DNA of 23,199 bases from Methanobacteriota archaeon (GCA_020347645.1 CP070736.1:920451-943649); one strand, 5' to 3'. Shown: positions 2,364-22,450, counted from the stretch's first letter. Notes: generated by a model from the sequence alone, not told the origin. Made by a program: numbers and translations.

Positions 2364-2364
2364 G

Positions 2365-5367: not shown

Positions 5368-5810
5368 TGTGCACTCTCCTCGGAAATCGGACCGAGCGCT
5401 TCTAGTTCCGTCACCATCTGTTTAACAACGTCAGCGAATTTGTGTCCCTCAGAACCTGCAATCCATTCAACTCTGAAGCGTTGTGATTCTATCCCCGCAT
5501 CCTCTATGAACTCTGATAGGAAATCCCCTCTTATCGCAGTCTTCTCGTTGCCGTTTATGTAATGACAGTCGGAGGGATGACATCCAGCGATGATCACGCC
5601 GTCCGCTCCGAGCGAGAATGCTTTGAGCACGAAGGCCGGATCGACCCTGCCGGAACACATAACCCTTATGATCTTGACATTCGTGGGATACTGCAGCCTA
5701 GTTGTTCCTGCCAGGTCTGCGCCCGCATATGAGCACCAATTGCAGCAGAAAGCAACAATCTCTGGATTGTAGGCGGGTCGTTCTTCCCGGAGATTCGGAT
5801 GTCCATCCAT
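5364..5810 (-). CDS. mvhD: Methyl-viologen-reducing hydrogenase delta subunit-like protein (MvhD)
   Basis: 148-aa ORF with FCCNWCSYAGADLAG, RVMCSGRV and AGCHPSDCHY motifs typical of MvhD. Sits immediately upstream of hdrA, with a 4-nt ATGA overlap. Confidence 0.85.
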   Translation of the reverse strand: MDGHPNLREERPAYNPEIVAFCCNWCSYAGADLAGTTRLQYPTNVKIIRVMCSGRVDPAFVLKAFSLGADGVIIAGCHPSDCHYINGNEKTAIRGDFLSEFIEDAGIESQRFRVEWIAGSEGHKFADVVKQMVTELEALGPISEESAQ

Positions 5811-5812
5811 GG

Positions 5813-6730
5813 TTAGGTCCCCCTGAGCTTTCTGATAAACGAGTGTACAGAGACGTGATGCGTGTCAAAGCCGAGCGAGTTCGGATCGACCCCCATCGCG
5901 ATGGCCTGGAACTGGGATATGTGCATCACAGGTATCCCCTCCTTAGTGAAGGATTTCTGCGCGTTGTCAAATTGGAGGAGACAGAATGGACATCCCGTGA
6001 CTATGCAGTCCGCTCCGGCATCTGCGATCTTCCTACACTTGTCCTCAGTAATCGAATTGGCCAGCTCCACTACATGGGACCGAACACCGCCGCCGGCGCC
6101 GCAGCAGTCCAACTTGTCTTCGTATTCGATGCTGGTCGCGCCGCATTTCTCTATGATTAGGTCTATGTTGACCGGGTCGTTCGGGTCGTCAATCGTTTGC
6201 TTCTCGGTTGGTCTCAGGTAGTGGCATCCATAATGCACCGCGGCGCGCACATTGCTGAGGGGCTTCCTCGTCCTCTCTGCAATGGTTTCGAGACCAACAT
6301 CATTGATCATGACATCAACATAGTGTCGTACTTTCACTGGCCCCATCACTCGCCGTCGCCCCTCGGTCTTTGTGGGGATTCCAATGTACTTCCTGCCAAT
6401 CTGGGAGAGCACGCGGTTCACCCTGCCGAGGTTCTTTGGGTCGGCGAGGTTCTCGGTAGCTTTGAGCAATGAGGTGAGACAGCCGTTGCAGACGGTGAGG
6501 ATCTCCCTCCGCTCATTCTGAGCGAGCGTCAGGTTTCGCGCAGCTATAAGCAGCCAAGTCCTTTTGTCAGAGGAGTAGAATATGCCTGGAACGGGACAGC
6601 AGGAAAACTCCTCGATGTCCTCTACATCCAGGTTGAATCCGTCGCTACCGCAAACCCACCTGACAGCGTACTCTATGCCCGGATATCGGTTGGGTATGAC
6701 ACAGCCGAAGAAATAGGCGTACTGCGTCAC
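5813..6730 (-). CDS. hdrB: Heterodisulfide reductase subunit B (two CCG domains)
   Basis: 305-aa ORF beginning [18 protein letters not shown]. Contains both cysteine-rich CCG signatures (CCPVPG...C...CNGC and CCGAGGG...CPFC). The start codon is GTG and overlaps the hdrC stop (GTGA). Confidence 0.9.
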   Translation of the reverse strand: MTQYAYFFGCVIPNRYPGIEYAVRWVCGSDGFNLDVEDIEEFSCCPVPGIFYSSDKRTWLLIAARNLTLAQNERREILTVCNGCLTSLLKATENLADPKNLGRVNRVLSQIGRKYIGIPTKTEGRRRVMGPVKVRHYVDVMINDVGLETIAERTRKPLSNVRAAVHYGCHYLRPTEKQTIDDPNDPVNIDLIIEKCGATSIEYEDKLDCCGAGGGVRSHVVELANSITEDKCRKIADAGADCIVTGCPFCLLQFDNAQKSFTKEGIPVMHISQFQAIAMGVDPNSLGFDTHHVSVHSFIRKLRGT

Positions 6731-7311
6731 CCCCTCACCTCACTCTCTATGCCTATGAGCCTGTCATAGCCCGTGGAACGAACCAGCAGGTTAATCTCAC
6801 GTACGACTTTCGCGTATCCTCGAGTGCGCGACGGCATGTCTTCCAGGTCGAGCTCCCTCCTGACTCGCTCAATCTCAGAGTCAGGTTTGACGCTTTGGCC
6901 GTACTCGACGAGGTTTGTCGCAGCCAACTTGATGAAGGGTGGTATGACACCCTCCTTTATTGCCATGTGTCTGAGCGCTATCATCACTTCAGCAGGGTTT
7001 ATGTCGGCAGGGCAGTATTCATAACACCTGTAGCAGGTAGCACAGACCCACCTCATCTCAAGCGTGAACTTCTTAAGCCCAAACTGACAGAATTTGATTA
7101 TGCTTCTGGTCTTGTAGTCAATCTTGAGACTTATTGGACAGACGCCCGTGCAATTCCCGCATTGGAGACAAGTCATCACATCTTTGCCTCCATGCTTCAC
7201 GATTTCTTTGGCGAAATTCGGTTCAAGGTGCGACTCATCAATGATTTTGTCCTCGGCCAACTTCTCATGAAGGCCGCCTATGAATGTCTTCTCTACTTCT
7301 CCCATGATCAT
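6727..7311 (-). CDS. hdrC: Heterodisulfide reductase subunit C (2x[4Fe-4S] ferredoxin)
   Basis: 194-aa ORF with [12 protein letters not shown] and [12 protein letters not shown] motifs. The ATG overlaps the hdrA TGA (ATGA). Confidence 0.9.
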
Positions 7312-9473
7312 GCACCCTCCGCCCTATTCGCATCTTTCTTTGTCTTGCCGGCCGCCCTGCCAACACCTCCAAGGGCTGACGCGATTTCCGAAGTTATCTG
7401 CTCATCAGTGAACTGGTTCGCCGCTATGGCTTTTTGCGGACACGCCGGGACACAAGTCCCGCATCCATGACAGAGCGCTTCCACGATCTTCGCTTTTGAG
7501 CCCGTCTCGCTTTCGTGGACTTCCGGCGCGCCATAAGGACACATCTCAACGCACAGCCCGCATCCGACGCAAAGCTCTTCATCGACAATTGCTGTCAGAG
7601 GTTCAATTCTAACCTGTTTGCCAGCCATGATTGCGGCTGCGGATGCCGCAGCCGCTTTCGCCTGGGCCACCGAATCTGGGATGTCCTTGGGACCCTGTGC
7701 GCATCCCGCGAGGTATATGCCATCGATGGCGGTGTCGACAGGTCGGAGCTTTGGGTGCGCTTCCTGAAAGAATCCATCAGAGCTGAGAGAAAGCGGCAAG
7801 ACCTTGCCAATCCTCTTGCTTCCCTCGGACGGTTTGAGCCCCGTCGCTAGAACAATCAGGTCGAACTCCCTCTCCGTGATCTTGCTGAGCAGGGTCTCCT
7901 CCGCTCTTATCGTGATGGAGCCGGTTTCCGGATTCTCACTAAGCTTTGCTGGCCGACCTCTTATGAATTCAATTCCGTACTCTTCTCTAACGCGATGGTA
8001 CAGTTCCTCGAAGCCCTTCCCAAACGCTCTGATGTCATTGTAGTAAACAGCGATATCGGTGTCGGGTTGGTGCTCCTTGATTATCTGCGCATTCTTGATT
8101 GTATACATGCAGCAGACCCGCGAGCAGTAGGCGGATCCCAACTTCCTGTTCCTCGATCCTACGCATTGGATGAATGCAACCCTCTTTGGCGGCTTTCCAT
8201 CGGATGGTCTGATGAAATTCCCTCCAGTAGGACCCGAGGCGTTTATCAATCGTTCGAGTTCCAGGCCTGTTATGACGTTCCGGGACTCCCAATACCTGTA
8301 AACATCCCGCTTCTTCGGGACATATATGTCGAAGCCAGTGGCGCAAATGATCGTGCCGACTTTCAACTCAATTTCATCGTCGACAATTTCGTAATCTATT
8401 GCATCGTTGGAGCAAGCCTTGACACAAGCTCCGCATTTGCCGGTCTTGAAGTGAATGCAGTTCTCTCTATCGATCGTATACTTGAGCGGGACCGCCTGTG
8501 GAAAGGGAACGTAGATTGCCTTCCTCTTGCCAAAGCCTAGGTCGAACTTGTTGTCGACTTTGACCGGGCATGCGTCGGCACACACTCCACACCCGACGCA
8601 CTTGCTCTCATCGACATAGCGAGCCTTCTTCCTGACCTTCACATTATAATTGCCTATGAACCCGTGGATTTCTTCGACCTCGGAATATGAAAGGAGTGTG
8701 ATGTTTGGGTGCCTCGATAGCTCCACCATTTTGGGGGCCAATATACATATGGCACAGTCTCCCGTCGGAAAAGTCTTGTCCAATTGGGCCATGCGGCCGC
8801 CAATACTCGGCTCGGATTCGACGACGTAGACTTTAAATCCCATCTCCGCCAGGTCGAGTGCGGCTTGGATCCCCGCCACTCCTCCCCCAATAACCAGTGA
8901 CGATTGCTCTACGGGCACCTCTCTGGCCTCAAGCGGTTCTAGCCTTGCAGCCTTTGCTACCCCCATTCTCACTAGACCGATCGCCTTCTCAGTAGCCTTG
9001 TCTTTCTCTCGGGAGTGCACCCAAGAGCACTGCTCTCTGAGATTTACCATCTGCAACAGATACGGGTTGAGGCCAGCCTGCTTGACACAGTTCCTGAAAG
9101 TCGGTTCATGCATCCTTGGAGAGCACGCGGCAATGACAACTCTCTCGACCCCATTCTGTTTGATTGCAGAAATTATCTCATCCTGTCCAAGGTCTGAACA
9201 GGTGTACTTATTCTCTTTGGCAGTGACAACGCCCGGCAGCTTCTCTGCGGCCTCCCTGACTTTTGACGGATTAACGGTGCCTGCTATGTTGCTGCCGCAA
9301 TGACAGATGAAGACGCCTATACGCGGATTCGAAGAGATGCTATTCACCTCTCTCGCCGTTTCTCCGACTCCGTTTTCTCCGAGCGACTCATATGAATTCA
9401 CATCATCACTCCATGCTAAGACCGGCATTACTTCGTTTAGTCCGAGTAATCCCGCAATTACCGTTAAGCGCAA
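7308..9473 (-). CDS. hdrA: Heterodisulfide reductase subunit A, classical domain order (N-terminal Cys-cluster domain, FAD domain, inserted ferredoxin, C-terminal ferredoxin)
   Basis: The ORF-track start at 9473 is a TTG. In-frame alternatives are ATG at 9428 and a GTG at 9401 preceded by GGAGTGA, and the true N-terminus is probably one of these. Sequence shows [16 protein letters not shown]...CSDLGQ...AACSPRMHE...EQCSWVH, then [35 protein letters not shown]...CSRVCC, and C-terminal [12 protein letters not shown]...[12 protein letters not shown]. Confidence 0.9.
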
Positions 9474-9541
9474 AGACCGACTTAATTACTCGGCCCTGAT
9501 TTCATATCTGGAGATTAGTGTTTCGTGTAGCAGAAGGACAG

Positions 9542-9556
9542 TTAATATAGCTTTCG
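9542..9556 (-). promoter_or_regulatory. Candidate archaeal BRE/TATA element for the hdrACB-mvhD operon
   Basis: The minus strand reads CGAAAGC-TATATTAA (purine-rich BRE followed by an 8-bp TATA) inside the only AT-rich stretch of the window. It lies 70-115 nt upstream of the candidate hdrA start codons. Confidence 0.3.
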
Positions 9557-9826
9557 TTGTCAATATTTCTAAAAACGCATTGACGTCTGCGATAATTGTT
9601 AACAGGTCTCCTTAAGAAGGCCGGCAAGTGTACAGTAATGTATTCGCATATTCGAAGTCCAGTTTTCTGGATATGCGGTAGATTTGACAATCTTACACAC
9701 TTGTCGGCATTTTTAGGCAAATCAATAGCATCCCCACCCACTCCTCATTAGGAAATTCGCAACCATCACATCGCTTTACATTTGGGAAGATCGCTCACAT
9801 TCGCATTTCTTTCTGATGATAGGTCT

Positions 9827-10918
9827 TCAAGTCTTGTCGAGTCTTGTACGACGGTATCTGTGCGAGATATGGCAACTCCCTTCGCGCGAAACCATGCATG
9901 GTCCAATAGGATTCTCCGGAGTACATTTCCTGTCAAACAGTGGGCATTCCTCGCTTGTTATGATGCCCCGTAGAATCTCGCCACACCTGCAACCATCAGG
10001 CTCTATGCATTCCGCGTCTGCGGCGGCAGCAATTGTATCAGAGAAACGCTTGCTGGCATCGTGAATCTCAAGCTCGTTCTTCACCGACATCCCACTTTCG
10101 GGGATCACAGGGAATCCACGCCAGATAGCGTCTGTCGGCGTAAAAGCATCCCTAATAGCCTTCAGCGCCGTCGGGTTTCCGGCTGGTTTCACCACTCGCG
10201 AGTATTCGTTCTGCACCTCGCCCCTCCCCTCGGAGTGCTGTTTGGCCAAGAGGTAGACAGCCACCATGAGATCGAGGGGCTCGAAACCGGCCACAACCTG
10301 AGGTATTCCGTACTCTTCCGACAGAAATTCGTAGGGCGCGGTGCCGATAATTGCGCTCACGTGGCCAGGTTGAATCATGCCGTGGAGCTTTATCTCCCCC
10401 ATCGAAGATATCGCTCTCAGAGCCGGGGGAACGATTCTATGGAAACTCAGAACAGAGAAGTTATCCGGCGGACTCGATAGAAGGGCCGTAGCCGTTGTGG
10501 GCGCAGTTGTCTCAAAGCCGATTCCTACGAAGACCACCTCACCATGCGATTGTCTGGCAATATCAACCGCGTCGTCCACGCCGAAAACGATTCTGACGTC
10601 TCCTCCCTCGGCTTTGATGTCCCCGAGCGATTGCCTCTTGCCAGGAACTCTCATCAGGTCCCCGAATGCTGCTATAGTTATTCCAGCCCTTGCGAGTGCC
10701 ATCGTCGTTTCAATCTCCTGCGGTGGCGTTATGCACACCGGGCATCCTGGTCCTTGACGAATATCGATTCCGACTCTTTGAAATTCGCTGTCAAGACCGA
10801 ACCTGACGAGGGTGTCTTGGTGGGTGCCGCAAACGTGCATGAGGGTGATGTCGAGCCTCATCTCTTTCAGCTCTTTCAGTATCTTTTGGGACATCTCCCT
10901 GTCTCTCAGCCTAAACAT
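9827..10918 (-). CDS. hypD: [NiFe]-hydrogenase maturation factor HypD
   Basis: 363-aa ORF with MHVCGTHQD, GPGCPVCITP, FETTAP and a C-terminal Cys cluster (CRCG...ECPLF...C). Starts at ATG; overlaps hypA by 8 nt. Confidence 0.9.
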   Translation of the reverse strand: MFRLRDREMSQKILKELKEMRLDITLMHVCGTHQDTLVRFGLDSEFQRVGIDIRQGPGCPVCITPPQEIETTMALARAGITIAAFGDLMRVPGKRQSLGDIKAEGGDVRIVFGVDDAVDIARQSHGEVVFVGIGFETTAPTTATALLSSPPDNFSVLSFHRIVPPALRAISSMGEIKLHGMIQPGHVSAIIGTAPYEFLSEEYGIPQVVAGFEPLDLMVAVYLLAKQHSEGRGEVQNEYSRVVKPAGNPTALKAIRDAFTPTDAIWRGFPVIPESGMSVKNELEIHDASKRFSDTIAAAADAECIEPDGCRCGEILRGIITSEECPLFDRKCTPENPIGPCMVSREGSCHISHRYRRTRLDKT

Positions 10919-11285
10919 CCGGCACCACCATAGCGATGTTCCTTATGACGCAGTCACGGCCGCCTGTGACCTTTGCGAGATCCCCGCATCTTGGGCATTC
11001 GAACGCAGAAGCCAGAGCATGGGGCCTGTCGTTCGATGGCGACGTCTTTCCTCTGAATCCGCAGCTGCATTCAATCTCGCCATCCACGGTTTGCAGGTCC
11101 AAGATCGCCCCTTCGAGCAGGGTATTCTTAGACAACACTTCGAAGGCGAATCTAAGCTGATAGTGCCCGAGCATGGTGAACTCTCCCAGCTCGACTGTGA
11201 CCCTCTCTATCCTGGACGCGTTCCTGCTTTTCGCCTCATCGATTACGCTGGTGACTATTTCGCTCATAACGGAAAACTCATGCAT
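10911..11285 (-). CDS. hypA: Hydrogenase nickel-insertion protein HypA
   Basis: 124-aa ORF. Begins MHEFSVMSEIV (conserved MHE). Has two zinc-site motifs, CSCG and CPRCG. Confidence 0.85.
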   Translation of the reverse strand: MHEFSVMSEIVTSVIDEAKSRNASRIERVTVELGEFTMLGHYQLRFAFEVLSKNTLLEGAILDLQTVDGEIECSCGFRGKTSPSNDRPHALASAFECPRCGDLAKVTGGRDCVIRNIAMVVPDV

Positions 11286-13769: not shown

Positions 13770-14420
13770 CTAGAGCTCCAGTGCCGATAGAAGATCATCG
13801 ACTCCAGTTCCATTTCGAGCATCCATGGCGATGATGTCCGCCTTCGGGTTTGCCTTCCTCGCATCTCCTTCGAGCGTTTCGATGTTGACTTCCATAGCAT
13901 CAGCCAGCCCAATCTTGTTGATTACTATGATATCCGAGAAGGCGAAAATTGCGGGATGTTTTCTAACCATATCATCCCCTTCCGTGACGCTTATAACGAC
14001 AATCCTCTTGTGCGATCCAAGCGGGAAATCGACCGGACAGACCAGGTTTCCAACATTCTCGATGAAGAGGTAATCGAGCTCACTCAACGGTAGCTTCTCG
14101 AGCGCGTGATCAACCAGATGCGCATCGAGGTGACATTCTTTGCCTGTGCTTATGTTGACTCCGGGTATGTCATGTGATACGAATCGTCTATAATCATCGT
14201 CTCCTGATACGTCACCGGAGATGGCGGCACACTTCTTGCCCTTCGCTTTCAGCCGATCTATCAACCTCTCGATTATCAGCGTCTTGCCGGAGCCTATGCC
14301 TCCGAGGAAATCGAACGATCGAATGCCGTGCTCATCGAGCAAAGCCCTATTCTGTTCCGCCAGTTTCCTGTTGGCAGAGAGGATATTCTTCTCTAGGTCA
14401 ACGTCGACAGTCTTGTGCAT
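13770..14420 (-). CDS. hypB: Hydrogenase nickel-incorporation GTPase HypB
   Basis: Has Walker A GGIGSGKT, ENVGNLVCP, and a GDD...Y motif. I placed the start at the in-frame ATG at 14420 (MHKTVDVD). The ORF track extends to a TTG at 14486, but the extra 22 residues are not HypB-like. Confidence 0.85.
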   Translation of the reverse strand: MHKTVDVDLEKNILSANRKLAEQNRALLDEHGIRSFDFLGGIGSGKTLIIERLIDRLKAKGKKCAAISGDVSGDDDYRRFVSHDIPGVNISTGKECHLDAHLVDHALEKLPLSELDYLFIENVGNLVCPVDFPLGSHKRIVVISVTEGDDMVRKHPAIFAFSDIIVINKIGLADAMEVNIETLEGDARKANPKADIIAMDARNGTGVDDLLSALEL

Positions 14421-14516
14421 GTTGTTGAGAAGCAGCCTTCTCGGAATAATCTTTTCGCCCCAAATGTGTGCCGCCGTTATCGGCAAGTGTTGAATTCTGC
14501 TACCTACTCTCCATCA

Positions 14517-14765
14517 ATGCCTATGAAGGAGACGTTCATATCGCATTCGACCTCAAAGCCAATGCGATGGATCAACAGGGTTGCCAAGAGTTCGACCAAG
14601 AAGGACAGAATTGAGGGGCCAGATCTGATTGGCGAAGTCGTTGCATTCCTCTTCATGTTCGCTGTACTATGGCTCATCGTGGCACATAAGACAAAGGAAA
14701 CAGGATTCCACATTGACTATTTCGGCGTGGTGGAGATACCCGGCGACCTTACCTGGCAGGGATAG
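14517..14765 (+). CDS. Hypothetical small membrane protein (one predicted TM helix)
   Basis: In-frame ATG inside track ORF 14415..14765. Encodes MPMKETF...VVAFLFMFAVLWLIVAHK... with a hydrophobic helix. No obvious SD, so it may be leaderless or spurious. Confidence 0.2.
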   Translation: MPMKETFISHSTSKPMRWINRVAKSSTKKDRIEGPDLIGEVVAFLFMFAVLWLIVAHKTKETGFHIDYFGVVEIPGDLTWQG

Positions 14766-14768
14766 ACG

Positions 14769-14777
14769 CTATATAAC
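14769..14777 (+). promoter_or_regulatory. Candidate TATA box for the Kelch-protein gene
   Basis: CTATATAAC sits about 85 nt upstream of the ATG at 14859, which is preceded by a GGTGAG SD. Confidence 0.3.
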
Positions 14778-14858
14778 TCGGTTTACGAATACTTCCGACA
14801 TGCTCGGAGCCGTTGGGGACTGATGCTCTATCGCGGCCGGGTGTGACAAGGTGAGAAG

Positions 14859-16508
14859 ATGACAAGTAGGAAAGTTGGCGAAACTGCGGTCCTTGCGGGA
14901 GTACTTGCGTTCCTGCTGGCATTCGCATCATTGAGCTTCATTGCGACCCCTGTCAGCGCAGCTCTGACAGGGGAATGGGTTGAAGAGACGTCCATGGGTG
15001 GGCCACGGGCGCAGGCCGTTATACTCTATGATGCGGAAGGAATCGCCTATGTGATAGGAGGAGTGAACAGCACATTACCCTACAGTGCAACGAACGAGAC
15101 AAATTCCTACGACTTGGATACAGGGTCGTGGGATTCCTTGGCTCCATTGCCATTTCCAACAAGGGGAGCAGCTGGCGCTGTGGGTCCCGACGGAAAGCTG
15201 TACATGTTCGGCGGAGAATACCCGGAAGACGCGGTCCAGATATATGACCCCGATTCCAATTCATGGCACCTTGGAACCAGCATGCCGACAGGCGTCTGGC
15301 AGGGCAGGGCAGGCATGGGTTACGATGGTATGATATACGTTATGGGTGGTGTCAATGGAACCTCCGGCATCACGGATTCGGTGCAGATCTACGATCCTAT
15401 GCTGGATTCATGGTCCCTGGGAGCCCCGATGCCCTACGCTCGAAACTCGGGGGCTCTCGTGAGCGTCTACGAGGGAAGCGGCTTCTATTACTTGGGAGGC
15501 AGCACCGTCTCATGGACTGACAGCAGCGCCACGGTCTACGTCTACTCAGTGGATGGAGACTTTTGGTACGGACTTGGGGATGAGATGCCAGTAACCGTGG
15601 CCTCGCAATCGTGTGCTATTGCCGTTGACGGGAACATCTTCGTGATGGGCGGCGGGGCCGATGGATACAACGTCGGCCCGGGTTATGACACAACCTATTG
15701 GTATGACACGTCTGATGGCGATTGGCACGACGGCCCCGCCCTCCCGGTCGGTGTGAGGCACGCGGGCGCTGTCGCGACTCCCGAGGGAATGCTCTACTTC
15801 TTCGGAGGCAACAACGATACGGATGTTATGAGCACCGTTCTCTCTCTTGAGGTCGCGCATTTGGAAGTTACCCTCTCGGGAACACCAGTGGCCCAAGGCG
15901 GTTTCTTGAATCTCGGGATCACGCTGGATTTAGCATTCGCACACCCGGACGGCTACTATGCAGACGCATATCTTATTTCGGACTCTGGAACTGTGCATTC
16001 AGTGTGGGAGGTCTGGGTCCCTGTCCTTGAACCCGCGGAGTTCGTGTTGGATATCCCGGCCGCAACGCCCGCAGGCGATTACACACTCGTTGTGGACGTG
16101 GGATTCTATCCATCGGACTTCCCAGAGAAGTCATTAGACGTAACCGTGACAGATGCATACACGTTCGAGGAGCAACTGGAGATGTTGAGGGCAAACTTGA
16201 CCGAACTCCTGGACGCTCAGGCGACGGACATCGCGGATCTTGAGGCGGCGCTCGACGCCCTGGAGGCTCAACTTTCCGACGCCGACGGCAACATCACCGA
16301 CTTGCAGACTCAGCTGGACGAGCTGCAGGATGTCCTGACCGAGATGCAGGAATCCATGAACGACGTACAGACATCGGTGGACAAGAAGACCGACAACTCT
16401 CTACAGTATGCCGTCATTGGCCTGCTCATCGTAGTCATCGTCCTCATGGTTCTCATGATGATCATGGGCCGCAGGCCTGGCGCGTCACCGCCTCCTCCTG
16501 ATGCGTGA
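14859..16508 (+). CDS. Secreted Kelch-repeat beta-propeller protein with coiled-coil stalk and C-terminal transmembrane anchor
   Basis: 549-aa ORF. Signal peptide MTSRKVGETAVLAGVLAFLLAFASLSFIATPVSA, then six repeats of the Kelch pattern (YDxxxxSW...MP...R...). Then an acidic Leu-heptad segment (LEMLRANLTELLDAQATDIADLEAALDALEAQL) and a terminal helix VIGLLIVVIVLMVLMMIMGRR with a Pro-rich tail. Confidence 0.8.
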   Translation: MTSRKVGETAVLAGVLAFLLAFASLSFIATPVSAALTGEWVEETSMGGPRAQAVILYDAEGIAYVIGGVNSTLPYSATNETNSYDLDTGSWDSLAPLPFPTRGAAGAVGPDGKLYMFGGEYPEDAVQIYDPDSNSWHLGTSMPTGVWQGRAGMGYDGMIYVMGGVNGTSGITDSVQIYDPMLDSWSLGAPMPYARNSGALVSVYEGSGFYYLGGSTVSWTDSSATVYVYSVDGDFWYGLGDEMPVTVASQSCAIAVDGNIFVMGGGADGYNVGPGYDTTYWYDTSDGDWHDGPALPVGVRHAGAVATPEGMLYFFGGNNDTDVMSTVLSLEVAHLEVTLSGTPVAQGGFLNLGITLDLAFAHPDGYYADAYLISDSGTVHSVWEVWVPVLEPAEFVLDIPAATPAGDYTLVVDVGFYPSDFPEKSLDVTVTDAYTFEEQLEMLRANLTELLDAQATDIADLEAALDALEAQLSDADGNITDLQTQLDELQDVLTEMQESMNDVQTSVDKKTDNSLQYAVIGLLIVVIVLMVLMMIMGRRPGASPPPPDA

Positions 16509-16590
16509 GGTGCGCGTAAATGTCGATGAATCGGGTGGAGAGACAGGCGTAATCCGCTGAACGCTCAAGAGGGATTGATTTCCCTCGCTA

Positions 16591-16620
16591 AACCCTTTTC
16601 CCATATTCTGTTTATGTTGC
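16591..16620 (+). terminator. Possible oligo-T termination signal after the Kelch gene
   Basis: T-runs (CCCTTTTCCC, CTGTTTATGTT) within 110 nt downstream of the stop. Archaeal termination uses oligo-T. The placement is weak. Confidence 0.2.
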
Positions 16621-16633
16621 ATTGTCTCACAGC

Positions 16634-16718
16634 TACAGAGGGATTCGAACCTCTGCCAAGCCAGTAGGTCCGAAGTCGGAGGAAATCAAGAGGAATTTCG
16701 TACCGGGGACAAACCCTT
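16634..16718 (-). repeat. tRNA-like repeat copy A (T-arm/acceptor-like core plus ~60-nt extension)
   Basis: The reverse complement contains GGTTCGAATCCCTCTG... About 95% identical to copy C over ~85 nt. Same orientation as copies B, C, E and D. Confidence 0.6.
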
Positions 16719-16878
16719 TTCAATCATTCCATGCCGAGAGAACTACCCTCTTTCAAGAAATGAATTCACTCGGCACTGAATTCGACTCGTTGGCTATGTT
16801 CTAAGAAGCGATTGGAGATTTCGGGAAGAGTGTTGAGAAGATTGATATCCACCAGCAAGATTACCCTGTGAGTAATCC

Positions 16879-17520
16879 ATGCCGAACGATGAATTCTGGC
16901 CAGAGGAGGAAGTGAGGAAGTATACTACCGAGATGAAGGCCGTGACAATCACCGTCAACTTCATCGTCGAGGGTAAGCAGATGATACTATCCGTAGACAA
17001 CTTCGAGAAGCTGCTGCGCAAGGCATACAGAATCGCAATCATCGACTGCGAATGCAGGACCCGAGTGAAGGCGTGCAGCGCTCCAGTCGACGTCTGTATC
17101 TATATGAACGAGGGAGCGGACGACCAAGTCGGGTTAGGACGTGGGAAAGAGGTCTCGCTTGAGCAAGCCCTCGACGCCATAAGGAGAGCGCATGAGGCGG
17201 GGCTCGTCCATACAGCTTTTAGCGACATCGACGGGAAGGAACCGCAGTACATCTGCAGCTGCTGCTCGTGCTGCTGCCATACATTCCCCGCGCTGCAGAG
17301 ATACGGGTTCAGCGAGTATTTGGTCTCGTCCGAGATGATTGCTGCCCAAGACGACGATAAGTGTGACGACTGCGGACTCTGCGCAGACACATGCCACTTC
17401 AGAGCGAGGAATATTGTGAACGGACGCCTGAAGTATGACAAGAAGAAGTGCTTCGGTTGCGGTATTTGCATTCCCTCTTGCCCTAACGGCGCGATATCGA
17501 TGAAGAATAGGCACAATTGA
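16879..17520 (+). CDS. Cysteine-rich iron-sulfur protein with a C-terminal 2x[4Fe-4S] ferredoxin domain, function unknown
   Basis: 213-aa ORF. Has CECRTRVKAC...C, an unusual ICSCCSCCCH block, and then CDDCGLCADTC and CFGCGICIPSCP ferredoxin motifs. Confidence 0.75.
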   Translation: MPNDEFWPEEEVRKYTTEMKAVTITVNFIVEGKQMILSVDNFEKLLRKAYRIAIIDCECRTRVKACSAPVDVCIYMNEGADDQVGLGRGKEVSLEQALDAIRRAHEAGLVHTAFSDIDGKEPQYICSCCSCCCHTFPALQRYGFSEYLVSSEMIAAQDDDKCDDCGLCADTCHFRARNIVNGRLKYDKKKCFGCGICIPSCPNGAISMKNRHN

Positions 17521-17535
17521 GGATTCAATAAAGTT

Positions 17536-17622
17536 GGGGGCAGAGGGATTTGGACCTCTGCCGAGCCAGCATGTCCGAAGCCCAAGGGAATCAAGAGGAA
17601 TCTTGTACCAGGGGCGAACTCC
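17536..17622 (-). repeat. tRNA-like repeat copy B (diverged)
   Basis: GGGGGCAGAGGGATTTGGACCTCTGCCGAGCCAG... is homologous to copies A and C with many substitutions (T-loop reads TCCAAAT). It is read through by the artefactual N-terminus of track ORF 17534..18997. Confidence 0.5.
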
Positions 17623-17830
17623 TTTCTCCCTTGTCGTTCACCCAGCCAACGAGGACGATTCTGCAAATGTGTGCTGGTCACGGGTCAAACGCGATAGTTA
17701 TCGCTGCGCTGACAGGACGCGCGGATTCCGGGATTCGAACCAAGGAGTAGCCCGACATCCTTCCTTAATCGCAATTGAGTATGTGAAGATAGACAAGGTT
17801 GATATAGCGCAACCTGACTACGATTGGCGG

Positions 17831-18997
17831 GTGGTAGTAGTGAGGGGTGCAGCAATCAGTGTGGGAGTTGCGATTCTGCTGCTGTTCTCAGGCCTCAGTC
17901 TGATATCCCAAGATGTGGCAGCAAGTGGGTACGAAGATGGTGTCTCTCCGGATCGTACATTCTATCTGGATCGTGGTGGGGAGAAAGAGAACGGCAAGTC
18001 TTATGAGAGCACTCTCGTCCCTCCGTTCCCTGGTGAATGGTGGTTGGAACTACTGGTGCTCGATGGCGGTTCCGTCGAAGTATCGGTCTATTCCACATAC
18101 GTTCGAGGTCCTGCAATAGCCAAAATGAGCTTGGGCTCGATCGGGATGGTATCGGCACGTCTTCCGGTGACGGCCGGCTACTCTTACGACTTAACCTTCA
18201 AGATTGAAGGCGGTCCAGGCTACGCTGTTATGAAGGAACACTTCCTGTCAACCCTTCCGCCGCCCGCGGAGCTTCCTCCCTTCGGAACTGTACCACACGC
18301 CCCGATACATATCTGGTCCTATACCGACTATCTGGATCCATTGAACGACATATCTGGTTCGGGAACTGAAGACGATCCGTTTGTCATCGAGGGCTGGGAG
18401 ATAAGCGGAGGGGTTGAGGACGGCATCTGGGTGTGCGAGTCCAACTTCCATCTGGTCATCCGTGATTGCTTTGTCCATTCCATCGGCTACCCCAGCGCAG
18501 GCATATATCTCTTCGTGACCTCGAATGTCGTGATTGAGAATTGCTATGTTGAGAACTGTGTGGGTAGTGAGATTGCCATAGGCTCGTGCTCGTCAATCCT
18601 TGTCAGGAACTGCGTGATCTGGAACGATGTCTACACATATCATTCAACGGATTCCACGTTCGAAGACAACGTGATTGGGAAGTCCAGACTCTTGTTACAG
18701 CAGTGCAGCAGCATTACTGTGCGTGGAAACACGCTACGCGATGGCATGATTGCCTCGTACTTCATCGCCTGTAATGATTGCCTCGTGTACAACAACAACT
18801 TCATGGAAAACGGGCAGAATGTGTACATCTGGGAATCCGTGGCTGTCGTGTGGGATTGCGGCCCCGTCTTGGGAGGGAACTACTGGTCCGATTACACAGG
18901 AATCGACTCTGACGGTGACGGATTGGGTGACACTCCATATGAGATCGCTCCAGACTGCATCGACCGGTATCCCTTGATACTTCCCTATAGCGGATGA
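17831..18997 (+). CDS. Secreted right-handed parallel beta-helix repeat protein (NosD / pectin-lyase-like)
   Basis: Repeated beta-helix rungs (VIRDCFVHS, VIENCYVENC, VRNCVIWND, VRGNTLRDG, VYNNNFMENG). C-terminal GNYWSDYTGIDSDGDGLGDTPYEI...DRYPL motif typical of the NosD/beta-helix family. The start is uncertain: in-frame GTGs lie at 17783, 17831 and 17840, and the last gives a canonical signal peptide MRGAAISVGVAILLLFSGLSLISQDVAA. The first ~100 codons of the track ORF (from the TTG at 17534) translate repeat B and are unlikely to be coding. Confidence 0.75.
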   Translation: MVVVRGAAISVGVAILLLFSGLSLISQDVAASGYEDGVSPDRTFYLDRGGEKENGKSYESTLVPPFPGEWWLELLVLDGGSVEVSVYSTYVRGPAIAKMSLGSIGMVSARLPVTAGYSYDLTFKIEGGPGYAVMKEHFLSTLPPPAELPPFGTVPHAPIHIWSYTDYLDPLNDISGSGTEDDPFVIEGWEISGGVEDGIWVCESNFHLVIRDCFVHSIGYPSAGIYLFVTSNVVIENCYVENCVGSEIAIGSCSSILVRNCVIWNDVYTYHSTDSTFEDNVIGKSRLLLQQCSSITVRGNTLRDGMIASYFIACNDCLVYNNNFMENGQNVYIWESVAVVWDCGPVLGGNYWSDYTGIDSDGDGLGDTPYEIAPDCIDRYPLILPYSG

Positions 18998-19098
18998 ACT
19001 CCGAAGTACTGCGCGCCTTGGAGAACGCCATGCCAGGCACCCCCGGTGCAAAAACCCCCTTGATTTCTCGGGACGACGATTATACCGACTATGCGTGA
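18994..19098 (+). CDS. Conserved 34-aa small ORF (MNSEVLRALENAMPGTPGAKTPLISRDDDYTDYA), paralogue of 22038..22142
   Basis: The ATG overlaps the TGA of the beta-helix gene (ATGA). A 34-codon paralogue with the same length and phase sits before repeat D. The two differ at 28 nt, 13 of them in third codon positions, including 8 purely synonymous codon changes. The ORF ends 4 nt before repeat C. Confidence 0.4.
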   Translation: MNSEVLRALENAMPGTPGAKTPLISRDDDYTDYA

Positions 19099-19102
19099 GA
19101 GT

Positions 19103-19187
19103 GGGGGCAGAGGGATTCGAACCCCTGCCAAGCCAGTAGGTCCGAAGTCGGAGGAAATCAAGTGGAATTTCGTACCGGGACAAACCC
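19103..19187 (-). repeat. tRNA-like repeat copy C
   Basis: The reverse complement ends ...GGCAGGGGTTCGAATCCCTCTGCCCCCA (T-stem/TTCGAAT loop/acceptor-like). ~95% identical to copy A over 85 nt. Its left flank (the small ORF) is homologous to the flank of copy D. Confidence 0.6.
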
Positions 19188-19229
19188 TTTCATCCTGTCA
19201 TTTCTGAGGTGCGGGCGACTATCGGCATA

Positions 19230-19940
19230 TCAGGATAGTGGGTCATCGATTGGCCCATGGTCTATCCATGAGTAGAGTTGCCCATCATGGACTGCGATAC
19301 CGTACCCTTCCCGGGCCTCCTGGCCACCCGCAGTGCAATAGAGTTCGAGTTCATACACAATGTCCTCCAGGAACCCAACCGACGAAACTGAACCATCTCT
19401 GAACACGATATGGACGAACGAGAAAGTGTCCCCAGCGTTGAATACTTCTGGATCAGTTGCATCAGAGACGAAATACGCAGTCAGAGAGCGAACCTCGACT
19501 TCGCCATCGAAGTAGATGGAGTATCCCAGCAGGGGTAGGCTCTCAGCTTCATCGAGGGTTGCAGGGACGGAGAAAGCAGAGATTTCGATGAATTCCTCGC
19601 ACGAGAACGGGCAGTATTTTCCCGTCGAGCCATCATCACGGTACTCAGTCATGTATATCGAAATATTGGCGTATGCCCAGAATGGGACTTCGTTGAGAGA
19701 CTCATTGAAGTCCCTGTTCCAGGTTACCCCCCACGACTGAAGCGTCAAGGGCGTGTCCTGCATTGGATATGGGTCGTCTGGCTCGTCAAAAACCCCCTCA
19801 GAGGCAAGGCCGTATAGAGCGAAAGCCACGAGTACCAAGACCAGCACAACAGACAGAATCCTGATTTTCAGAACATCAGAAGGTCTTCTCGGAGGTTCAT
19901 TTCTCCCCGGCTGTCTCGGTTCTGCTGCCTCATCACCCAT
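19230..19940 (-). CDS. Hypothetical single-pass membrane protein (Pro/Arg-rich cytoplasmic N-terminus, extracytoplasmic domain)
   Basis: 236-aa ORF: MGDEAAEPRQPGRNEPPRRPSDVLKIR, then a TM helix ILSVVLVLVLVAFALYGLA. GAGGA SD about 10 nt upstream of the ATG. No recognisable family. Confidence 0.6.
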   Translation of the reverse strand: MGDEAAEPRQPGRNEPPRRPSDVLKIRILSVVLVLVLVAFALYGLASEGVFDEPDDPYPMQDTPLTLQSWGVTWNRDFNESLNEVPFWAYANISIYMTEYRDDGSTGKYCPFSCEEFIEISAFSVPATLDEAESLPLLGYSIYFDGEVEVRSLTAYFVSDATDPEVFNAGDTFSFVHIVFRDGSVSSVGFLEDIVYELELYCTAGGQEAREGYGIAVHDGQLYSWIDHGPIDDPLS

Positions 19941-20004
19941 TAGACCATTCCTCAGGTCGTGCTGAACATCTTCTCACGTACAAATATCCTCGGACCACCT
20001 ATCA

Positions 20005-20055
20005 GGAGCAGAGGGATTTGAGTCTCTGCTGAGCCAGTATGTCCAGAATCCGAGT
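20005..20055 (-). repeat. tRNA-like repeat copy E (short, degenerate)
   Basis: AGCAGAGGGATTTGAGTCTCTGCTGAGCCAGTATGTCCAGAATCCGAG aligns with the first ~50 nt of copies A, B and C. Same orientation. Confidence 0.45.
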
Positions 20056-20098
20056 ACTTGTTATCTCGATGTTGAAAAGCGGAGAACGGGGAGGGGAG

Positions 20099-21508
20099 CT
20101 ACTTCCCCTTCTCCCGCCGCCCATCGACAGAGTTTCTGCCTTCCTCGAGCTTGGATAACTCGGACTTCAAGTCCTTGTTCTCCTCCATGATTCCCGTGAG
20201 CACGCCCATGATGTCCTTGAAGCCAAGGTCATTGGGTCGAGCGAGTCTGTTCAGCACGCTCACGGCCGAGCTTTCACTCGCCACATCCAGGCTTTCGATG
20301 AGCTGGCCGAGGTCAAACCCAGATCTCGCAGAGTCTCCTCCAGCAAACACCTTCAGATCGGCAGATGTCAGAGCCTTTGCTGTCTCGAGCCCGATCTGTC
20401 TCTGCATCTCAACGAGACGCTCGGCGACCAGCGCTCTGATGGCTTCTGGTCCGAACCGGTTCAGGGCGTCCTGCAGCTTCATCTTTGCCTCAGCATCTGC
20501 GAGCCCCTTCTCTCTGATGGGAGCGGCTTCTCCCTTCGCCTTCTCGGACAGGTAGATCTTGTCTCCTTCTCCGTCGAGCCTCTTCCTCTCTTTGTTGATC
20601 TCCTCGACTTCCCTGTCCTGGTTGGCTACGACGAGGGCCTTCTGCTTGAGGATCTCGGCCATCTTGACCTCATCGACCCTCCTGACCTCGAACTGCTCTG
20701 CGAGGGCGACCTTCTCGAACTCCGCGACGGCCCGATCCTTCTCCTGCCGTCGTTTCGCGACCTCCTCATCCCTCCGAATCTCCCTCTTCGTGGCCTCCTC
20801 GTCCGTCTCCGCCTCTTTGAGCCTCGCGATCTTCCTCTGCTCGGCGTTCTTCTGCCTCGCCTCGCTGTTGATCTGCTCCTCGATGATAGACGATACGTCT
20901 CTGATCACGTGCGGAGGCTCCGCTTCGCCATACTCTGCTTTCGTCGGGTCCTGGAAGTAGACGAGCTCGATGTCCTTAAGGTCGATGCCCCAGTGACCTA
21001 TCGCCTCTCTCAGGGGAGGGTTGATTGTATCGATTATGTCCTGCCTATTGTTGATTATCTCCCTTATGGTCTTCTTCGTGCATGCATCCCTTGTTGTGGC
21101 CGTGACGATCATGGCCACTTGCCTCTCCAGTTCGGTTACATCGCCGCCGAACCTCTGTGCCGCCTTGACGGGAGTAGTGACTGCGACATAGGCGATGATG
21201 TTGCACAGAAATCGAGCCCTGTCTATGTCGAAAGCCATGAAGTTCGACACGTCAACCGTGATCATCCTCAGAGGAACCCTGTGTACGGTCATGCCCAGTC
21301 CGAAGAGGAAGAACCATGATGGAATCTTGAAGTACGCGGCCCTCCCCTCTCTGTTGTAATCCTTGTGCGGGGACAGAACGCGCATCTTGCCTTTCTGGAT
21401 GACTACGTCGACATAGTCTGCAGGGACTATGGTGTACATCGCTGCAAGGATCGCAAAGAGGATCAGCAGTACGATGATTATGATGAAGGTCAGAAGCCAA
21501 GTCTCCAT
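20099..21508 (-). CDS. SPFH/band-7 (flotillin-like) membrane protein with long Glu/Ala/Lys/Arg-rich coiled-coil region
   Basis: N-terminal TM helix LLTFIIIIVLLILFAILAAMY, an SPFH core, then an extended EA/KR-rich helical region (KNAEQRKIARLKEAETDEEATKREIRRDEEVAKRRQEKDRAVAEFEK...). I chose the ATG at 21508 (METW...), which is preceded by GGGGGGA and overlaps the upstream gene's TGA. The track's ATG at 21526 is the alternative. Confidence 0.85.
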   Translation of the reverse strand: METWLLTFIIIIVLLILFAILAAMYTIVPADYVDVVIQKGKMRVLSPHKDYNREGRAAYFKIPSWFFLFGLGMTVHRVPLRMITVDVSNFMAFDIDRARFLCNIIAYVAVTTPVKAAQRFGGDVTELERQVAMIVTATTRDACTKKTIREIINNRQDIIDTINPPLREAIGHWGIDLKDIELVYFQDPTKAEYGEAEPPHVIRDVSSIIEEQINSEARQKNAEQRKIARLKEAETDEEATKREIRRDEEVAKRRQEKDRAVAEFEKVALAEQFEVRRVDEVKMAEILKQKALVVANQDREVEEINKERKRLDGEGDKIYLSEKAKGEAAPIREKGLADAEAKMKLQDALNRFGPEAIRALVAERLVEMQRQIGLETAKALTSADLKVFAGGDSARSGFDLGQLIESLDVASESSAVSVLNRLARPNDLGFKDIMGVLTGIMEENKDLKSELSKLEEGRNSVDGRREKGK

Positions 21509-21768
21509 CACATTTCCCCCCCACATCGCTCCTTGATTGCGACCAGAACCATTGTACCATCGTACACGCGCCCCGAAATCATCCTGTGCGGAAGCAGAGT
21601 TATGACCCCGTCCTTCTCAACGTAGATGTCCTTGCCATCGTTCAGTTCTCTGTACGCACTCTCAAGGTCGGCTATCGTGTGGAAGATGATCTTGTCTCCC
21701 TTGACCTTGTCTCCGAGTATCAGTTCCTCGACCGTGTAGATTCTCCTGCCTTCCGGAGTTTGTCTCAT
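21508..21768 (-). CDS. Small soluble protein translationally coupled to the flotillin gene (possible NfeD-like partner)
   Basis: 86-aa ORF with GGGGGAAGTGA SD. Its TGA overlaps the flotillin ATG. Operon pairing of SPFH proteins with NfeD-type OB-fold partners is established in bacteria and archaea. The beta-rich composition fits, but I did not verify a family match. Confidence 0.5.
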   Translation of the reverse strand: MRQTPEGRRIYTVEELILGDKVKGDKIIFHTIADLESAYRELNDGKDIYVEKDGVITLLPHRMISGRVYDGTMVLVAIKERCGGEM

Positions 21769-22037
21769 GCTCTCACTTCCCCCAGTACCCCTGGATCCAT
21801 ATGCGCGTGCGTCGACTCCGTGCGCATACCATTTCTCAGGATTGCATCAAACCTTTTTAACTCTGGCGATGGAATTCCGCTCGTGAATTTCGAGCCTTGG
21901 CCCCCTGATGTGGTTCACAGGGCTGCTTGCCTGAAGGCGACGCGGTTGCCGCTGAGCGAGGCGGCCGCATCGACGGCCCTTGGACACAGAAGGATCAAGG
22001 CCACGCAAGCGTGCTACTGCAAATAAGCATAGACACG

Positions 22038-22142
22038 GTGAATTCTGAGGTTCTGCAAACCTTGAACGACGCTGTGCTTGGCTACCCTGGTACGAAAAAC
22101 TCCGTGATTTCTCGGACGGACGATTACACTGGCTATGCGTAG
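22038..22142 (+). CDS. Conserved 34-codon small ORF, paralogue of 18994..19098 (GTG start; VNSEVLQTLNDAVLGYPGTKNSVISRTDDYTGYA)
   Basis: Homology to the copy-C small ORF begins exactly at the start codon (ATG there, GTG here) and runs to the stop, 3 nt before repeat D. The longer track ORF 21927..22142 adds an unconserved N-terminus. Confidence 0.35.
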   Translation: MNSEVLQTLNDAVLGYPGTKNSVISRTDDYTGYA

Positions 22143-22145
22143 GTG

Positions 22146-22316
22146 TGGGGGCAGAGGGATTTGAACCCCCATCGACGGGTTTCCACCACGTGGAGAGCGA
22201 CTCCACGCGTTCAGACATGGGTCATCGCTCCAGTTACTCATCACTGGTCAGCAAACCCAACGGAAATCATTCCCATAACTGGAGCCCGTTAGGATCCCAG
22301 GTTACCCCATACCCCC
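22146..22316 (-). tRNA. tRNA-like gene, possibly intron-containing or disrupted (repeat copy D)
   Basis: Minus-strand sequence starts GGGGGTA-TG-GGGT-AACCTGGG-ATCC. That gives a 7-bp acceptor stem that pairs with the 3' TGCCCCC-A, plus U8, A14, a GG in the D-loop and a 4-bp D-stem. It ends GGGGG-TTCAAAT-CCCTC-TGCCCCC-A, a near-perfect T-arm. A 5-bp AACGG/CCGTT stem encloses 22 nt, which would be an anticodon loop plus intron. About 87 nt lie between that stem and the T-arm, including a perfect hairpin CGTGGAG-TCGCT-CTCCACG. Confidence 0.3.
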
Positions 22317-22342: not shown

Positions 22343-22450
22343 CTACTTCTTCCTGAGCTTCTGAGCTCTCTTGCGTCTCCTCATCTTCTTCTTGCGCCAC
22401 TTCCAGCGCTGTTTTCCACGTTTCTTCCACGCTCGAGAACTCCTTTTCAT
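22343..22450 (-). CDS. rpl41e: Ribosomal protein L41e
   Basis: 36-codon minus-strand ORF: MKRSSRAWKKRGKQRWKWRKKKMRRRKRAQKLRKK. It is extremely basic, with the RWKW...RKKKMRR pattern of archaeal/eukaryotic L41e. GGAG SD about 10 nt upstream and a TATA box about 48 nt upstream. Too short for the ORF track. Confidence 0.7.
   Translation of the reverse strand: MKRSSRAWKKRGKQRWKWRKKKMRRRKRAQKLRKK

Follow-up and report, generated by a model that had tools for sequence, protein, structure and literature searches.

What placed five tRNA-like repeats, all in one orientation, between unrelated genes of an archaeal chromosome? The question is raised by a stretch of 23,199 nt from a Methanobacteriota archaeon (GCA_020347645.1 CP070736.1:920451-943649; hereafter the window), in which the repeats and the genes between them occupy positions 16634-22316. 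A first-pass annotation of this sequence had taken the repeats, named A, B, C, E, and D from left to right, for remnants of integration at the 3' end of a tRNA gene followed by decay. Our analysis identifies the region as a tRNA-anchored gene-capture island in a Thermoplasmata archaeon. It was probably built by serial site-specific integration at tRNA-Trp, with decay of the integrases and later gain and loss of modules at the repeat cores. The earlier reading of the repeats as integration junctions is thereby upheld by their attachment site (att)-like anatomy, by the integrase remnants beside them, and by an intact element found at a related locus (L012).

Copy D is, as proposed earlier, the only repeat that extends to a full tRNA. 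With long introns allowed, ARAGORN identified it as a tRNA-Trp(CCA) gene of 74 nt plus a 98-nt intron, folding into a clean cloverleaf; the same gene with the same intron is found in the related loci L005, L009, and L012. Only ~25 nt (the T-loop, the 3' strand of the T-stem, and the 3' strand of the acceptor) are common to D and the other copies. Default ARAGORN and Rfam at the gathering threshold gave no match in the window, and ARAGORN at low stringency returned dozens of spurious "tRNAs," also around B and C, which were treated as noise. D is thus a real, functional tRNA gene, and A, B, C, and E are not tRNAs. D is the chromosomal attachment site (attB/attL), and its core is the segment from the T-loop to the 3' end that it has in common with the other repeats. 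For annotation, this means that a tRNA finder has to allow long introns if it is to recover the genuine tRNA-Trp of this locus and that a tRNA label on any of the partial copies A, B, C, and E would be wrong.

The intron itself (22182-22279, minus strand), placed at the anticodon loop as are the long introns with C/D and C'/D' boxes of euryarchaeal tRNA-Trp, weakly resembles a C/D-box guide RNA (AUGAU.., CUGA, GUGAUGA, ..UGA) and is nearly identical among L005, L009, and L012. Compared with the C/D families of Rfam, it matched sR3 at 20.6 bits (E=0.053; gathering threshold, 41) and also snoPyro_CD, both below threshold; inspection by eye showed one guide to be complementary to the pre-tRNA that contains it, in the region of the anticodon loop. 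Besides this segment, an Rfam scan by E value yielded only chance matches, such as mir-877 and tmRNA. The C/D-box-like segment belongs to the tRNA gene and not to the island.

The remaining four copies are forms of one longer unit. All five repeats lie on the minus strand at the positions first reported, and a unit-specific pattern (GGACNTNCTGGCTNNGCAGNNNNNNNAATCCC), which joins the non-tRNA part to the core, matches exactly A, B, C, and E (0 matches expected from 100 shuffles). A repeat search delimited an 83-nt family of A (16636-16718), B (17541-17623), and C (19108-19190) (identity to A: B, 81%; C, 92%) and a 50-nt family with E (20005-20054; 76%) as an additional member. The first-pass annotation had rightly noted that A, B, and C share a further ~60 nt absent from D, and this stretch proved to be an inverted homologue of an integrase 3' end; its figure of ~95% identity between A and C was too high. 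A unit is ~95 nt long and comprises a ~65-nt arm, a hairpin core, and, often, a tRNA 3' end. On the tRNA-sense strand, the aligned arms of A, B, and C have the consensus GAAAGGGTTTGTCCCCGGTACGAAATTCC.CTTGATTT.CTC...TTCGGAC.TACTGGCT. The core is a perfect inverted repeat, GGCAGAGG-TTCRAAT-CCCTCTGCC, usually followed by the remainder of the tRNA 3' end (CCCCCA). Unit A is without the acceptor part and reads ...CCCTCTG and then TAGC, the loops of B and E deviate from the consensus (TCCAAAT and CTCAAAT, respectively), and in E the 3' end of a flotillin gene stands in place of the 5' arm. The core of tRNA-Trp has only the 5-bp T-stem to the left of the loop and is therefore imperfect, whereas that of the units is symmetric; a symmetric site on the element (attP) and an imperfect one on the chromosome (attB) are the usual arrangement (PMC8371274, section 18). 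Peptide coding by the units was considered and rejected, as the reading frames differ among copies and are broken by stops and indels.

Contrary to the initial statement that no integrase is present, tyrosine-integrase tails abut both D (21967-22142) and C (18994-19098, a segment previously listed as a "small ORF," i.e., open reading frame [ORF]). In the window, tblastn located integrase remnants at 21967-22023 (the catalytic LGH...Y region, frameshifted), 22020-22139, and 18994-19095. Beside D, a frameshifted ...ASTALGHRRIKATQACYCK, covering the region of the catalytic Tyr, is followed by the tail ...PGTKNSVISRTDDYTGYA and a stop codon, converging on the tRNA 3' end. The ORF of this tail (22020-22142, plus strand) is a paralogue of the tail beside C; stretches of the two are 76% identical, and both encode ...PGTK..ISR.DDYTGYA plus a stop. 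In L005, the same tail closes a 169-aa ORF annotated as a site-specific integrase, which converges on the identical intron-bearing tRNA-Trp. The tail beside C matches this protein in tblastn with E=2e-9 and the L012 integrase (P0010) with E=2e-6, and the match of the tails to the L005 integrase indicates that two decayed integrase genes abut D and C. C-terminal integrase remnants also abut tRNA-Trp or units in L005, L009, L006, L001, and L020. The N-terminal truncations have variable end points, which argues for decay and not for splitting of the SSV type.

At locus L012, the integrase is intact; 10.9 kb of element genes, among them those for a D12 methyltransferase and DUF6996/6997/7226, come next without an internal unit, and one distal unit ends the element. 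This element is the unbroken counterpart of the fragments seen in the window, and the position of its unit at the far end marks the unit as the distal, attR-type junction. The integrase P0010 has 334 aa, matches PF00589 with 50.6 bits (cutoff, 27.1) as well as the phrog_1 integrase, and has its stop codon 5 nt from tRNA-Trp. Full-length integrases of 334-339 aa end 2-5 nt from tRNA 3' ends in L012, L013, and L017; in the latter two, P0011 (L013:117-1199) converges on tRNA-Arg(CCT) and P0016 (L017:201-1295) on tRNA-Ala(GGC), each stopping 2-3 nt short of the tRNA 3' end. The family thus appears to use more than one tRNA as a target while keeping one arrangement of tail and tRNA, and because the tail lies against the tRNA 3' end in distant relatives too, this arrangement is a family trait. 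Even distant integrases retain the C-terminal motif ..PLIS...D.TGY(A/V); one distant relative, P0017 (L014), has the conserved tail, but an adjacent tRNA or unit was not found.

The integrase of the array elements is of class II (lambda/pNOB8 type), since its gene is intact when integrated, which is how that class is defined in PMC8371274. In class I, the SSV type, the attachment site lies inside the integrase ORF, integration yields Int(N) and Int(C), and PF16795 is present. A split integrase of this type was rejected: the reading frame does not extend into the tRNA, integration leaves the gene whole, and PF00589 was the only domain detected. The integrase belongs to no recognised family. It scores 49.9 bits against the XerA model (cutoff, 220) and 34.5, 23.0, and 16.4 bits against the integron integrase model TIGR02249 (cutoff, 265), and its only likeness in PDB is a weak 50-residue match to IntI4.

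The unit arm is significantly similar to the integrase tail read in sense, with local alignment scores of up to 43 compared with 13±2 for shuffles; its orientation is opposite to that of the tail next to the tRNA. This homology explains the inverted repeats of the window and the long hairpin around C: together with 19042-19067, unit C forms a long imperfect palindrome, and the fold around C reaches -64.6 kcal/mol (z = -2.3). The divergent arm of L012 best matches the tail of its own integrase, and other arms best match other tails. These comparisons suggest that the symmetry of arm and tail is maintained and not accidental.

Similar arrays occur in eight other contigs of Thermoplasmata type. 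The unit pattern was present in five Thermoplasmata metagenome-assembled genomes (MAGs) and further metagenome contigs, with 0 units in a viral contig collection. A unit profile recovered ~24 copies in nine loci, the window included; they are always co-oriented within a locus, are spaced 0.8-4.8 kb apart, and, where tRNA-Trp is present, lie 3' of it and on its strand. No unit was found outside the arrays in the 23-kb window or the fetched loci. In MAG JAOTTD01 (L005 and L001, which are contiguous), tRNA-Trp and the 169-aa integrase fragment accompany five units that separate one to two genes each. Locus L009 consists of rpl41e, tRNA-Trp, a frameshifted near-full-length integrase gene, a gene for 361 aa, a partial unit, and three intervals of one gene each, with a unit at the end of every interval (which brings the unit positions to four); its distal end is a 150-aa GNAT gene followed by hypB. 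The arrays of L009 and L007 end at hypB-hypF, as in the window. The core-gene flanks of the island are those initially named, with hypDACFB at one end and rpl41e and PAC2 at the other; the PAC2 flank was confirmed via the homologous 257-aa protein of L005, and the DNA of the rpl41e-like gene is conserved in L005 and L009.

Comparison of the locus among related genomes favors integration as well: the flanks are kept, the intervals differ module by module, and the breakpoints lie in the repeat core. The window and JAOTTD01 share only the segment from PAC2 through rpl41e and tRNA-Trp to the integrase remnant (83%) and unit A with the Kelch gene (88%), the latter as a synteny block in which window positions 16719..14743 correspond to 9017..10993 of the joined L005 and L001 at 88% identity. 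Unit A is the positional orthologue of the unit at L001:1012-1104, and the counterpart of the partial arm remnant at 16564-16601 is also kept in L001. Between the shared flanks, everything but the units differs. The Kelch module, which is internal to the array in JAOTTD01, is the most distal and oldest in the window; a shared distal module with lineage-specific modules on the tRNA side is the order expected if newcomers enter at the tRNA. With L009, the window has only the tRNA side and hypB in common. Modules recur in other contexts, namely, a 430-aa gene (L009 and L002; 92%), an EamA transporter (JAOTTD01 and L004; 87%), and a C11 peptidase (JAOTTD01 and L006). The intervals between units are thus the units of gain and loss.

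The clearest exchange concerns the module of orf236, an orphan membrane protein gene. Window positions 20052..19075 are 97.65% identical to L020, with different neighbors on both sides; the L020 array reads NMD3, partial unit, abhydrolase, unit, orf236, unit, integrase pseudogene, etc., and its flotillin pair is 79% identical to that of the window and inverted relative to it. At the left end, mismatches between the two continue up to ...GCAGAG(GT/AC) and cease from TCAAATCCCTCTGCTCCTGATAGG onward, a switch that places the breakpoint inside the T-loop of unit E. At the right end, identity covers the full length of unit C as far as CCCCCACT; the integrase tails beyond it are non-orthologous and ~70% identical. 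Unit E of the window combines a left half like that of L020 unit 3086 with a right half identical to that of L020 unit 4009, which would be the expected product if the abhydrolase module had been excised core to core or, conversely, inserted in L020. The breakpoints show that recombination has taken place within the ~20-nt tRNA-identical core at internal units and not only at the tRNA.

From the unit anatomy, the decayed and intact integrases in the expected place, the co-oriented arrays, the variable cargo between conserved flanks, and the breakpoints in the cores, we propose the following course of events. The tRNA-Trp gene D would serve as the attachment site for integrative elements with a class II tyrosine integrase, whose gene, once integrated, would end a few bases from the tRNA 3' end. 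The circular attachment site would comprise the ~65-nt arm, the GGCAGAGG / TTCRAAT / CCCTCTGCC core, the tRNA 3' end, and the integrase 3' tail, each of its two arms being homologous to the other in inverted orientation. A crossover within the T-loop or beside it would rebuild the tRNA and leave arm, core, and tRNA 3' end at the far end of the insert, and this far-end junction would correspond to the units A, B, C, and E. With each further insertion at the tRNA, older inserts would be pushed toward hypB, loss of the integrase and backbone genes would leave one to two cargo genes per module, and later core-to-core recombination would add, remove, or reshuffle modules. That the T-loop is the strand-exchange (overlap) region and that each new element enters at the tRNA and rebuilds it are inferences, as are the exact crossover position and the order of events; the sites might also be active at present.

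Several observations weigh against this scheme. Not every array follows tRNA-Trp: that of L004 follows tRNA-Ala, and that of L020 follows NMD3. The right side of most units is without an integrase tail or any shared sequence, and five units stop at CCCTCTG without the acceptor part, a junction from which the tRNA could not be rebuilt by simple insertion; several others keep exactly CCCCCA and are then followed by unrelated DNA. Neither the window nor most arrays hold an intact integrase, close relatives in the protein database are few and mostly fragments, and the composition profile shows uniform G+C along the island, with no anomaly. Finally, the arms of positionally orthologous units are only 66-77% identical, no more than random pairs. 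In the L009 and L002 loci, the units that flank the shared 430-aa module (L009:6472-6572 and L002:7047-7147; also L009:4950-5041 and L002:5524-5617) are ~75% identical, and the adjacent noncoding DNA is 93-95% identical. Units appear to evolve, or to be overwritten, much faster than their surroundings, and our guess is that the arms diverge through gene conversion among units.

Some unit surroundings deserve separate mention. At L004:3559-3756, a unit begins 29 nt after an intact tRNA-Ala(TGC) gene, and the orthologous unit of JAOTTD01 (L001:6330-6472, equal to 14330-14472 of the joined sequence) is preceded by a 3' fragment of tRNA-Ala only (...GTCCACCA). This link with tRNA-Ala suggests either a second tRNA-linked junction or a relocated piece of an array. 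A second type of right flank, CCCTCTG followed by AAT(T/G)CGTG...GGCGGAA..., was seen at L005:5647-5700, L005:7080-7130, and L009:4076-4135, and in L009 it leads into a further partial arm motif (GAAATTCTGCTTGATTTC); such flanks hint at nested or tandem partial units.

The tail-less units, whose modules either never had an integrase and were mobilised in trans or were trimmed by the integrase acting at secondary sites, and the unshared cargo of L012 keep a different origin of the modules under consideration. The integrase-less modules of one to two genes might themselves be mobile, by integron-like or CIME-like capture (CIME, cis-mobilizable element), instead of being what is left of large elements; each would circularise core to core, carry a single arm and core as its site, and enter at tRNA-Trp or a resident unit with an integrase acting in trans. 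The modules are indeed very short (0.8-1.5 kb, often a single gene), and ~16 units have no integrase tail, where random in situ deletion of a gene of ~1 kb would rarely end a few bases from the core. Several right flanks are exactly CCCCCA, as required if the module itself rebuilt the tRNA, and, apart from the integrase, the array cargo and the intact L012 element share no genes. Two arrays carry the orf236 module, which is without an integrase and has its breakpoints in the cores, at 97.7% identity; the only other gene common to these arrays is 79% identical. The 430-aa and EamA modules are likewise met with in more than one setting. The same breakpoints would, however, result if modules had been deleted core to core from an array inherited from a common ancestor, and the arm downstream of the L009/L002 module was not carried along at high identity. 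Neither circular forms nor empty sites nor free cassettes were seen, the viral collection is without the unit, cargo genes face both ways and so follow no common promoter logic, and an intact integrase is found in no array-bearing locus but L012. We regard mobility of the modules themselves as rather unlikely, and serial integration with decay as the better account of the island. The hedge in the first-pass annotation that the repeats might belong to an unrecognised cassette or recombination system may hold in part; an integron integrase, an integron type of site, and the cassette orientation of integrons were not found. We raise only tentatively that the ~95-nt units are live sites of a system with an integrase unrelated to IntI, the tRNA-Trp T-arm as the fixed insertion point, and arm plus core as the cassette sites. 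It is just as doubtful, if conceivable, that the full attachment site of such a system is a ~150-bp palindrome, half of which is the coding tail of the integrase itself, making it an independently evolved integron-like platform.

Two further explanations dispense with integration, and the comparisons above leave little room for either. Functional RNA genes, whether 3' halves of split or permuted tRNAs or tRNA-like small RNAs, with a leader that would pair downstream of tRNA-Trp, would fit the hairpin resembling a T-arm and acceptor in which the units end, the complementarity of each arm to DNA downstream of tRNA-Trp and of unit C, and the long hairpin into which the region around C folds. That complementarity is accounted for by homology to the integrase coding tail; a matching 5' half with GGGGGCAG is nowhere in the window; Rfam and ARAGORN have no matches at the units; and many copies are decayed or contain indels. 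When 18 units were folded together, the consensus retained no more than a core hairpin of 6-7 bp, with a covariation term of -0.25, so that the units are not structured RNA. RNA genes are thus extremely improbable, and the copies are, as the integration reading would have it, neither independent tRNAs nor structured RNAs. A split or permuted archaeal tRNA was rejected specifically, as no 5' half complementary to CTGCCCC exists besides D and the units are without an anticodon-stem strand. That the units are instead an element like a miniature inverted-repeat transposable element, or local tandem duplications of the tRNA 3' region, with no relation to the integrase, is very improbable as well. 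Such elements are short and repeated, as the units are, and would be expected to bear terminal inverted repeats, to duplicate their target sites, and to be dispersed in either orientation; the unit ends are weakly inverted (GAAAGGGTTTG compared with the reverse complement CAGAGGGATTTG, as read from the alignment), and the units appear to evolve independently of their neighbors. All of the ~24 copies are co-oriented and confined to arrays, however; no target-site duplications are visible at their flanks, the intervals are unrelated genes and not duplicates, the intact integrase element of L012 ends in a unit, and the breakpoints fall within the tRNA-identical core.

The features of the island are listed in Table 1. 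The cargo of the window is of accessory type, comprising SPFH/flotillin, orphan membrane, NosD beta-helix, 4Fe-4S, and Kelch proteins, and that of the other arrays includes C11 and M14 peptidases, PKD surface proteins, an MMPL transporter, a TrmB regulator, EamA, GNAT, and abhydrolase. Searches of orf236 with Pfam and PHROG profiles gave no match. The GTG start of the NosD gene at 17831 is our choice; the mechanically called ORF starts at 17534.

Table 1. Features of the tRNA-Trp island and its flanks in the window, from the tRNA outward, with the rpl41e-side flank last
Feature	Position	Strand	Basis or remark
tRNA-Trp(CCA) gene, copy D	22145..22316	-	ARAGORN with introns allowed; cloverleaf
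C/D-box small RNA-like segment in tRNA-Trp intron	22219..22274	-	Weak Rfam matches to sR3 and snoPyro_CD
Integrase pseudogene remnant beside D	21967..22142	+	tblastn with L005 integrase fragment and full-length P0010
Module 1 cargo: SPFH/flotillin gene (20099-21526) and 86-aa upstream partner (21508-21768)	20099..21768	-	Pfam Band_7, Flot
Unit E, truncated hybrid att unit	20002..20110	-	Well conserved over 20005-20054
Module 2 cargo: orf236, orphan 236-aa membrane protein	19230..19940	-	L020 holds a 99%-identical protein
Unit C, complete att unit (arm, hairpin core, tRNA 3' end CCCCCA)	19102..19194	-	nhmmer, 88.6 bits
Integrase tail remnant abutting unit C, 34 codons MNSEVLRALENAMPGTPGAKTPLISRDDDYTDYA plus stop	18994..19098	+	tblastn
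Module 3 cargo: secreted NosD/right-handed beta-helix protein	17831..18997	+	Pfam NosD, Beta_helix
Unit B, complete att unit, CCCCCA then unrelated DNA	17535..17629	-	nhmmer, 84.7 bits
Module 4 cargo: 213-aa 4Fe-4S protein	16879..17520	+	Pfam Fer4 families
Unit A, att unit ending at CCCTCTG, without acceptor part	16630..16723	-	nhmmer, 94.0 bits
Partial arm remnant, 5' ~36 nt of a unit, without core	16564..16601	-	Direct-repeat family, 72%; weak nhmmer match
Module 5 cargo: Kelch-repeat protein	14859..16508	+	Pfam Kelch; tblastn, 87% to L001
hypB, conserved chromosomal flank at distal island end	13770..14486	-	Pfam cobW/HypB
rpl41e-like 35-aa gene, conserved flank directly upstream of tRNA-Trp	22343..22450	-	Read from sequence (MKRSSRAWKKRGKQRWKWRKKKMRRRKRAQKLRKK)

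A few neighboring features were noted along the way. The stop codon of the flotillin gene falls in a G+C-rich hairpin (GGAGAACGGGGAGGGGA...UCCCCUUCUCCCGCC) at 20076-20124, which gave the spurious mir-877 match and is probably a terminator-like structure in the place of the missing 5' arm of unit E. The 4Fe-4S cargo protein has its closest homologue (78%) in another Thermoplasmata MAG, encoded directly downstream of tRNA-Arg(TCG) (L018:9841-10642), and the same is true of L019; a GNAT gene and a gene for a 2277-aa surface protein come next, with 0 units. This spot at tRNA-Arg(TCG) may be another tRNA-linked variable site. Upstream of hypDACFB, positions 1536-9473 (minus strand) of the window hold a cluster of heterodisulfide-reductase-like and FlpD/MvhD-like genes, with two FlpD-domain proteins, flavoprotein/ferredoxin fusions of 1000 aa and 721 aa, and a CCG-domain protein, which looks like ordinary core energy metabolism.

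The island provides a sequence-level account of how accessory genes are gained and shed at one hotspot, from tRNA-Trp to the hyp operon, in an uncultured Thermoplasmata lineage. The genes exchanged encode mostly envelope, secreted, and transport proteins, and the exchange of a module can be followed to breakpoints mapped into the tRNA-derived core. The previously undescribed family of integrase and attachment site can be searched for with the unit profile; in a search of the open-access literature, neither this family nor any tRNA-Trp array of Thermoplasmata was found described. If the modules were cassettes mobilised in trans, they would constitute a second, independently evolved cassette-capture system beside integrons and would also supply a compact system for site-specific recombination in archaea, directed at a defined tRNA.

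Archaeal class II elements of the pNOB8/lambda paradigm are known to integrate at tRNA genes, in tandem as well, and to lead to gene capture by decay (She et al. 2001-2004, Krupovic et al.; PMC8371274, sections 6, 18, 24). As in these elements, a PF00589 integrase here targets the 3' part of a tRNA, direct repeats of which flank the insert, the integrase is intact when integrated (L012, L013, and L017) and later lost, and elements stand in tandem at one locus. The arrays differ from them in a conserved junction of ~95 nt in place of an exact repeat of 40-60 nt, in an att arm that is the inverted homologue of the integrase's own coding tail, in modules cut down to one or two genes, and in an integrase of no recognised family. 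The tycheposon islands of Prochlorococcus (10.1101/2020.12.28.424599) are likewise adjacent to tRNAs, with insertion at the tRNA pushing older elements inward, and contain scattered partial tRNA copies, fragmented integrases, and adaptive accessory cargo. The host here is archaeal, however, the integrase lineage is probably unrelated, the junctions bear a long, conserved element-derived arm, and the arrays showed no replication or packaging modules. Accretion of CIMEs and integrative and conjugative elements in streptococci (PMC5704250, section 2.3) offers a parallel in that CIMEs can be moved by an integrase from elsewhere; those elements are bacterial and conjugative, whereas here mobilisation in trans would be a conjecture and the modules are much smaller.

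With integrons, including archaeal ones (PMC9668308), the arrays have in common tandem short modules, a hairpin-bearing recombination site, a tyrosine recombinase gene, and a fixed insertion point. An integron is defined by an integrase (IntI) with an extra domain around patch III and by promoterless cassettes, most of them facing one way, between its attC sites. Unlike those of integrons, however, the integrase fails the integron model by a wide margin (34.5 compared with 265 bits), the sites are tRNA derived with a conserved primary sequence and not structure-defined attC sites, the cargo is of mixed orientation in every array, and the insertion point is the T-arm of a tRNA. The mechanism is thus of a kind already known; what sets these arrays apart is a ~95-nt junction whose arm mirrors the integrase coding tail, together with modules of single genes.

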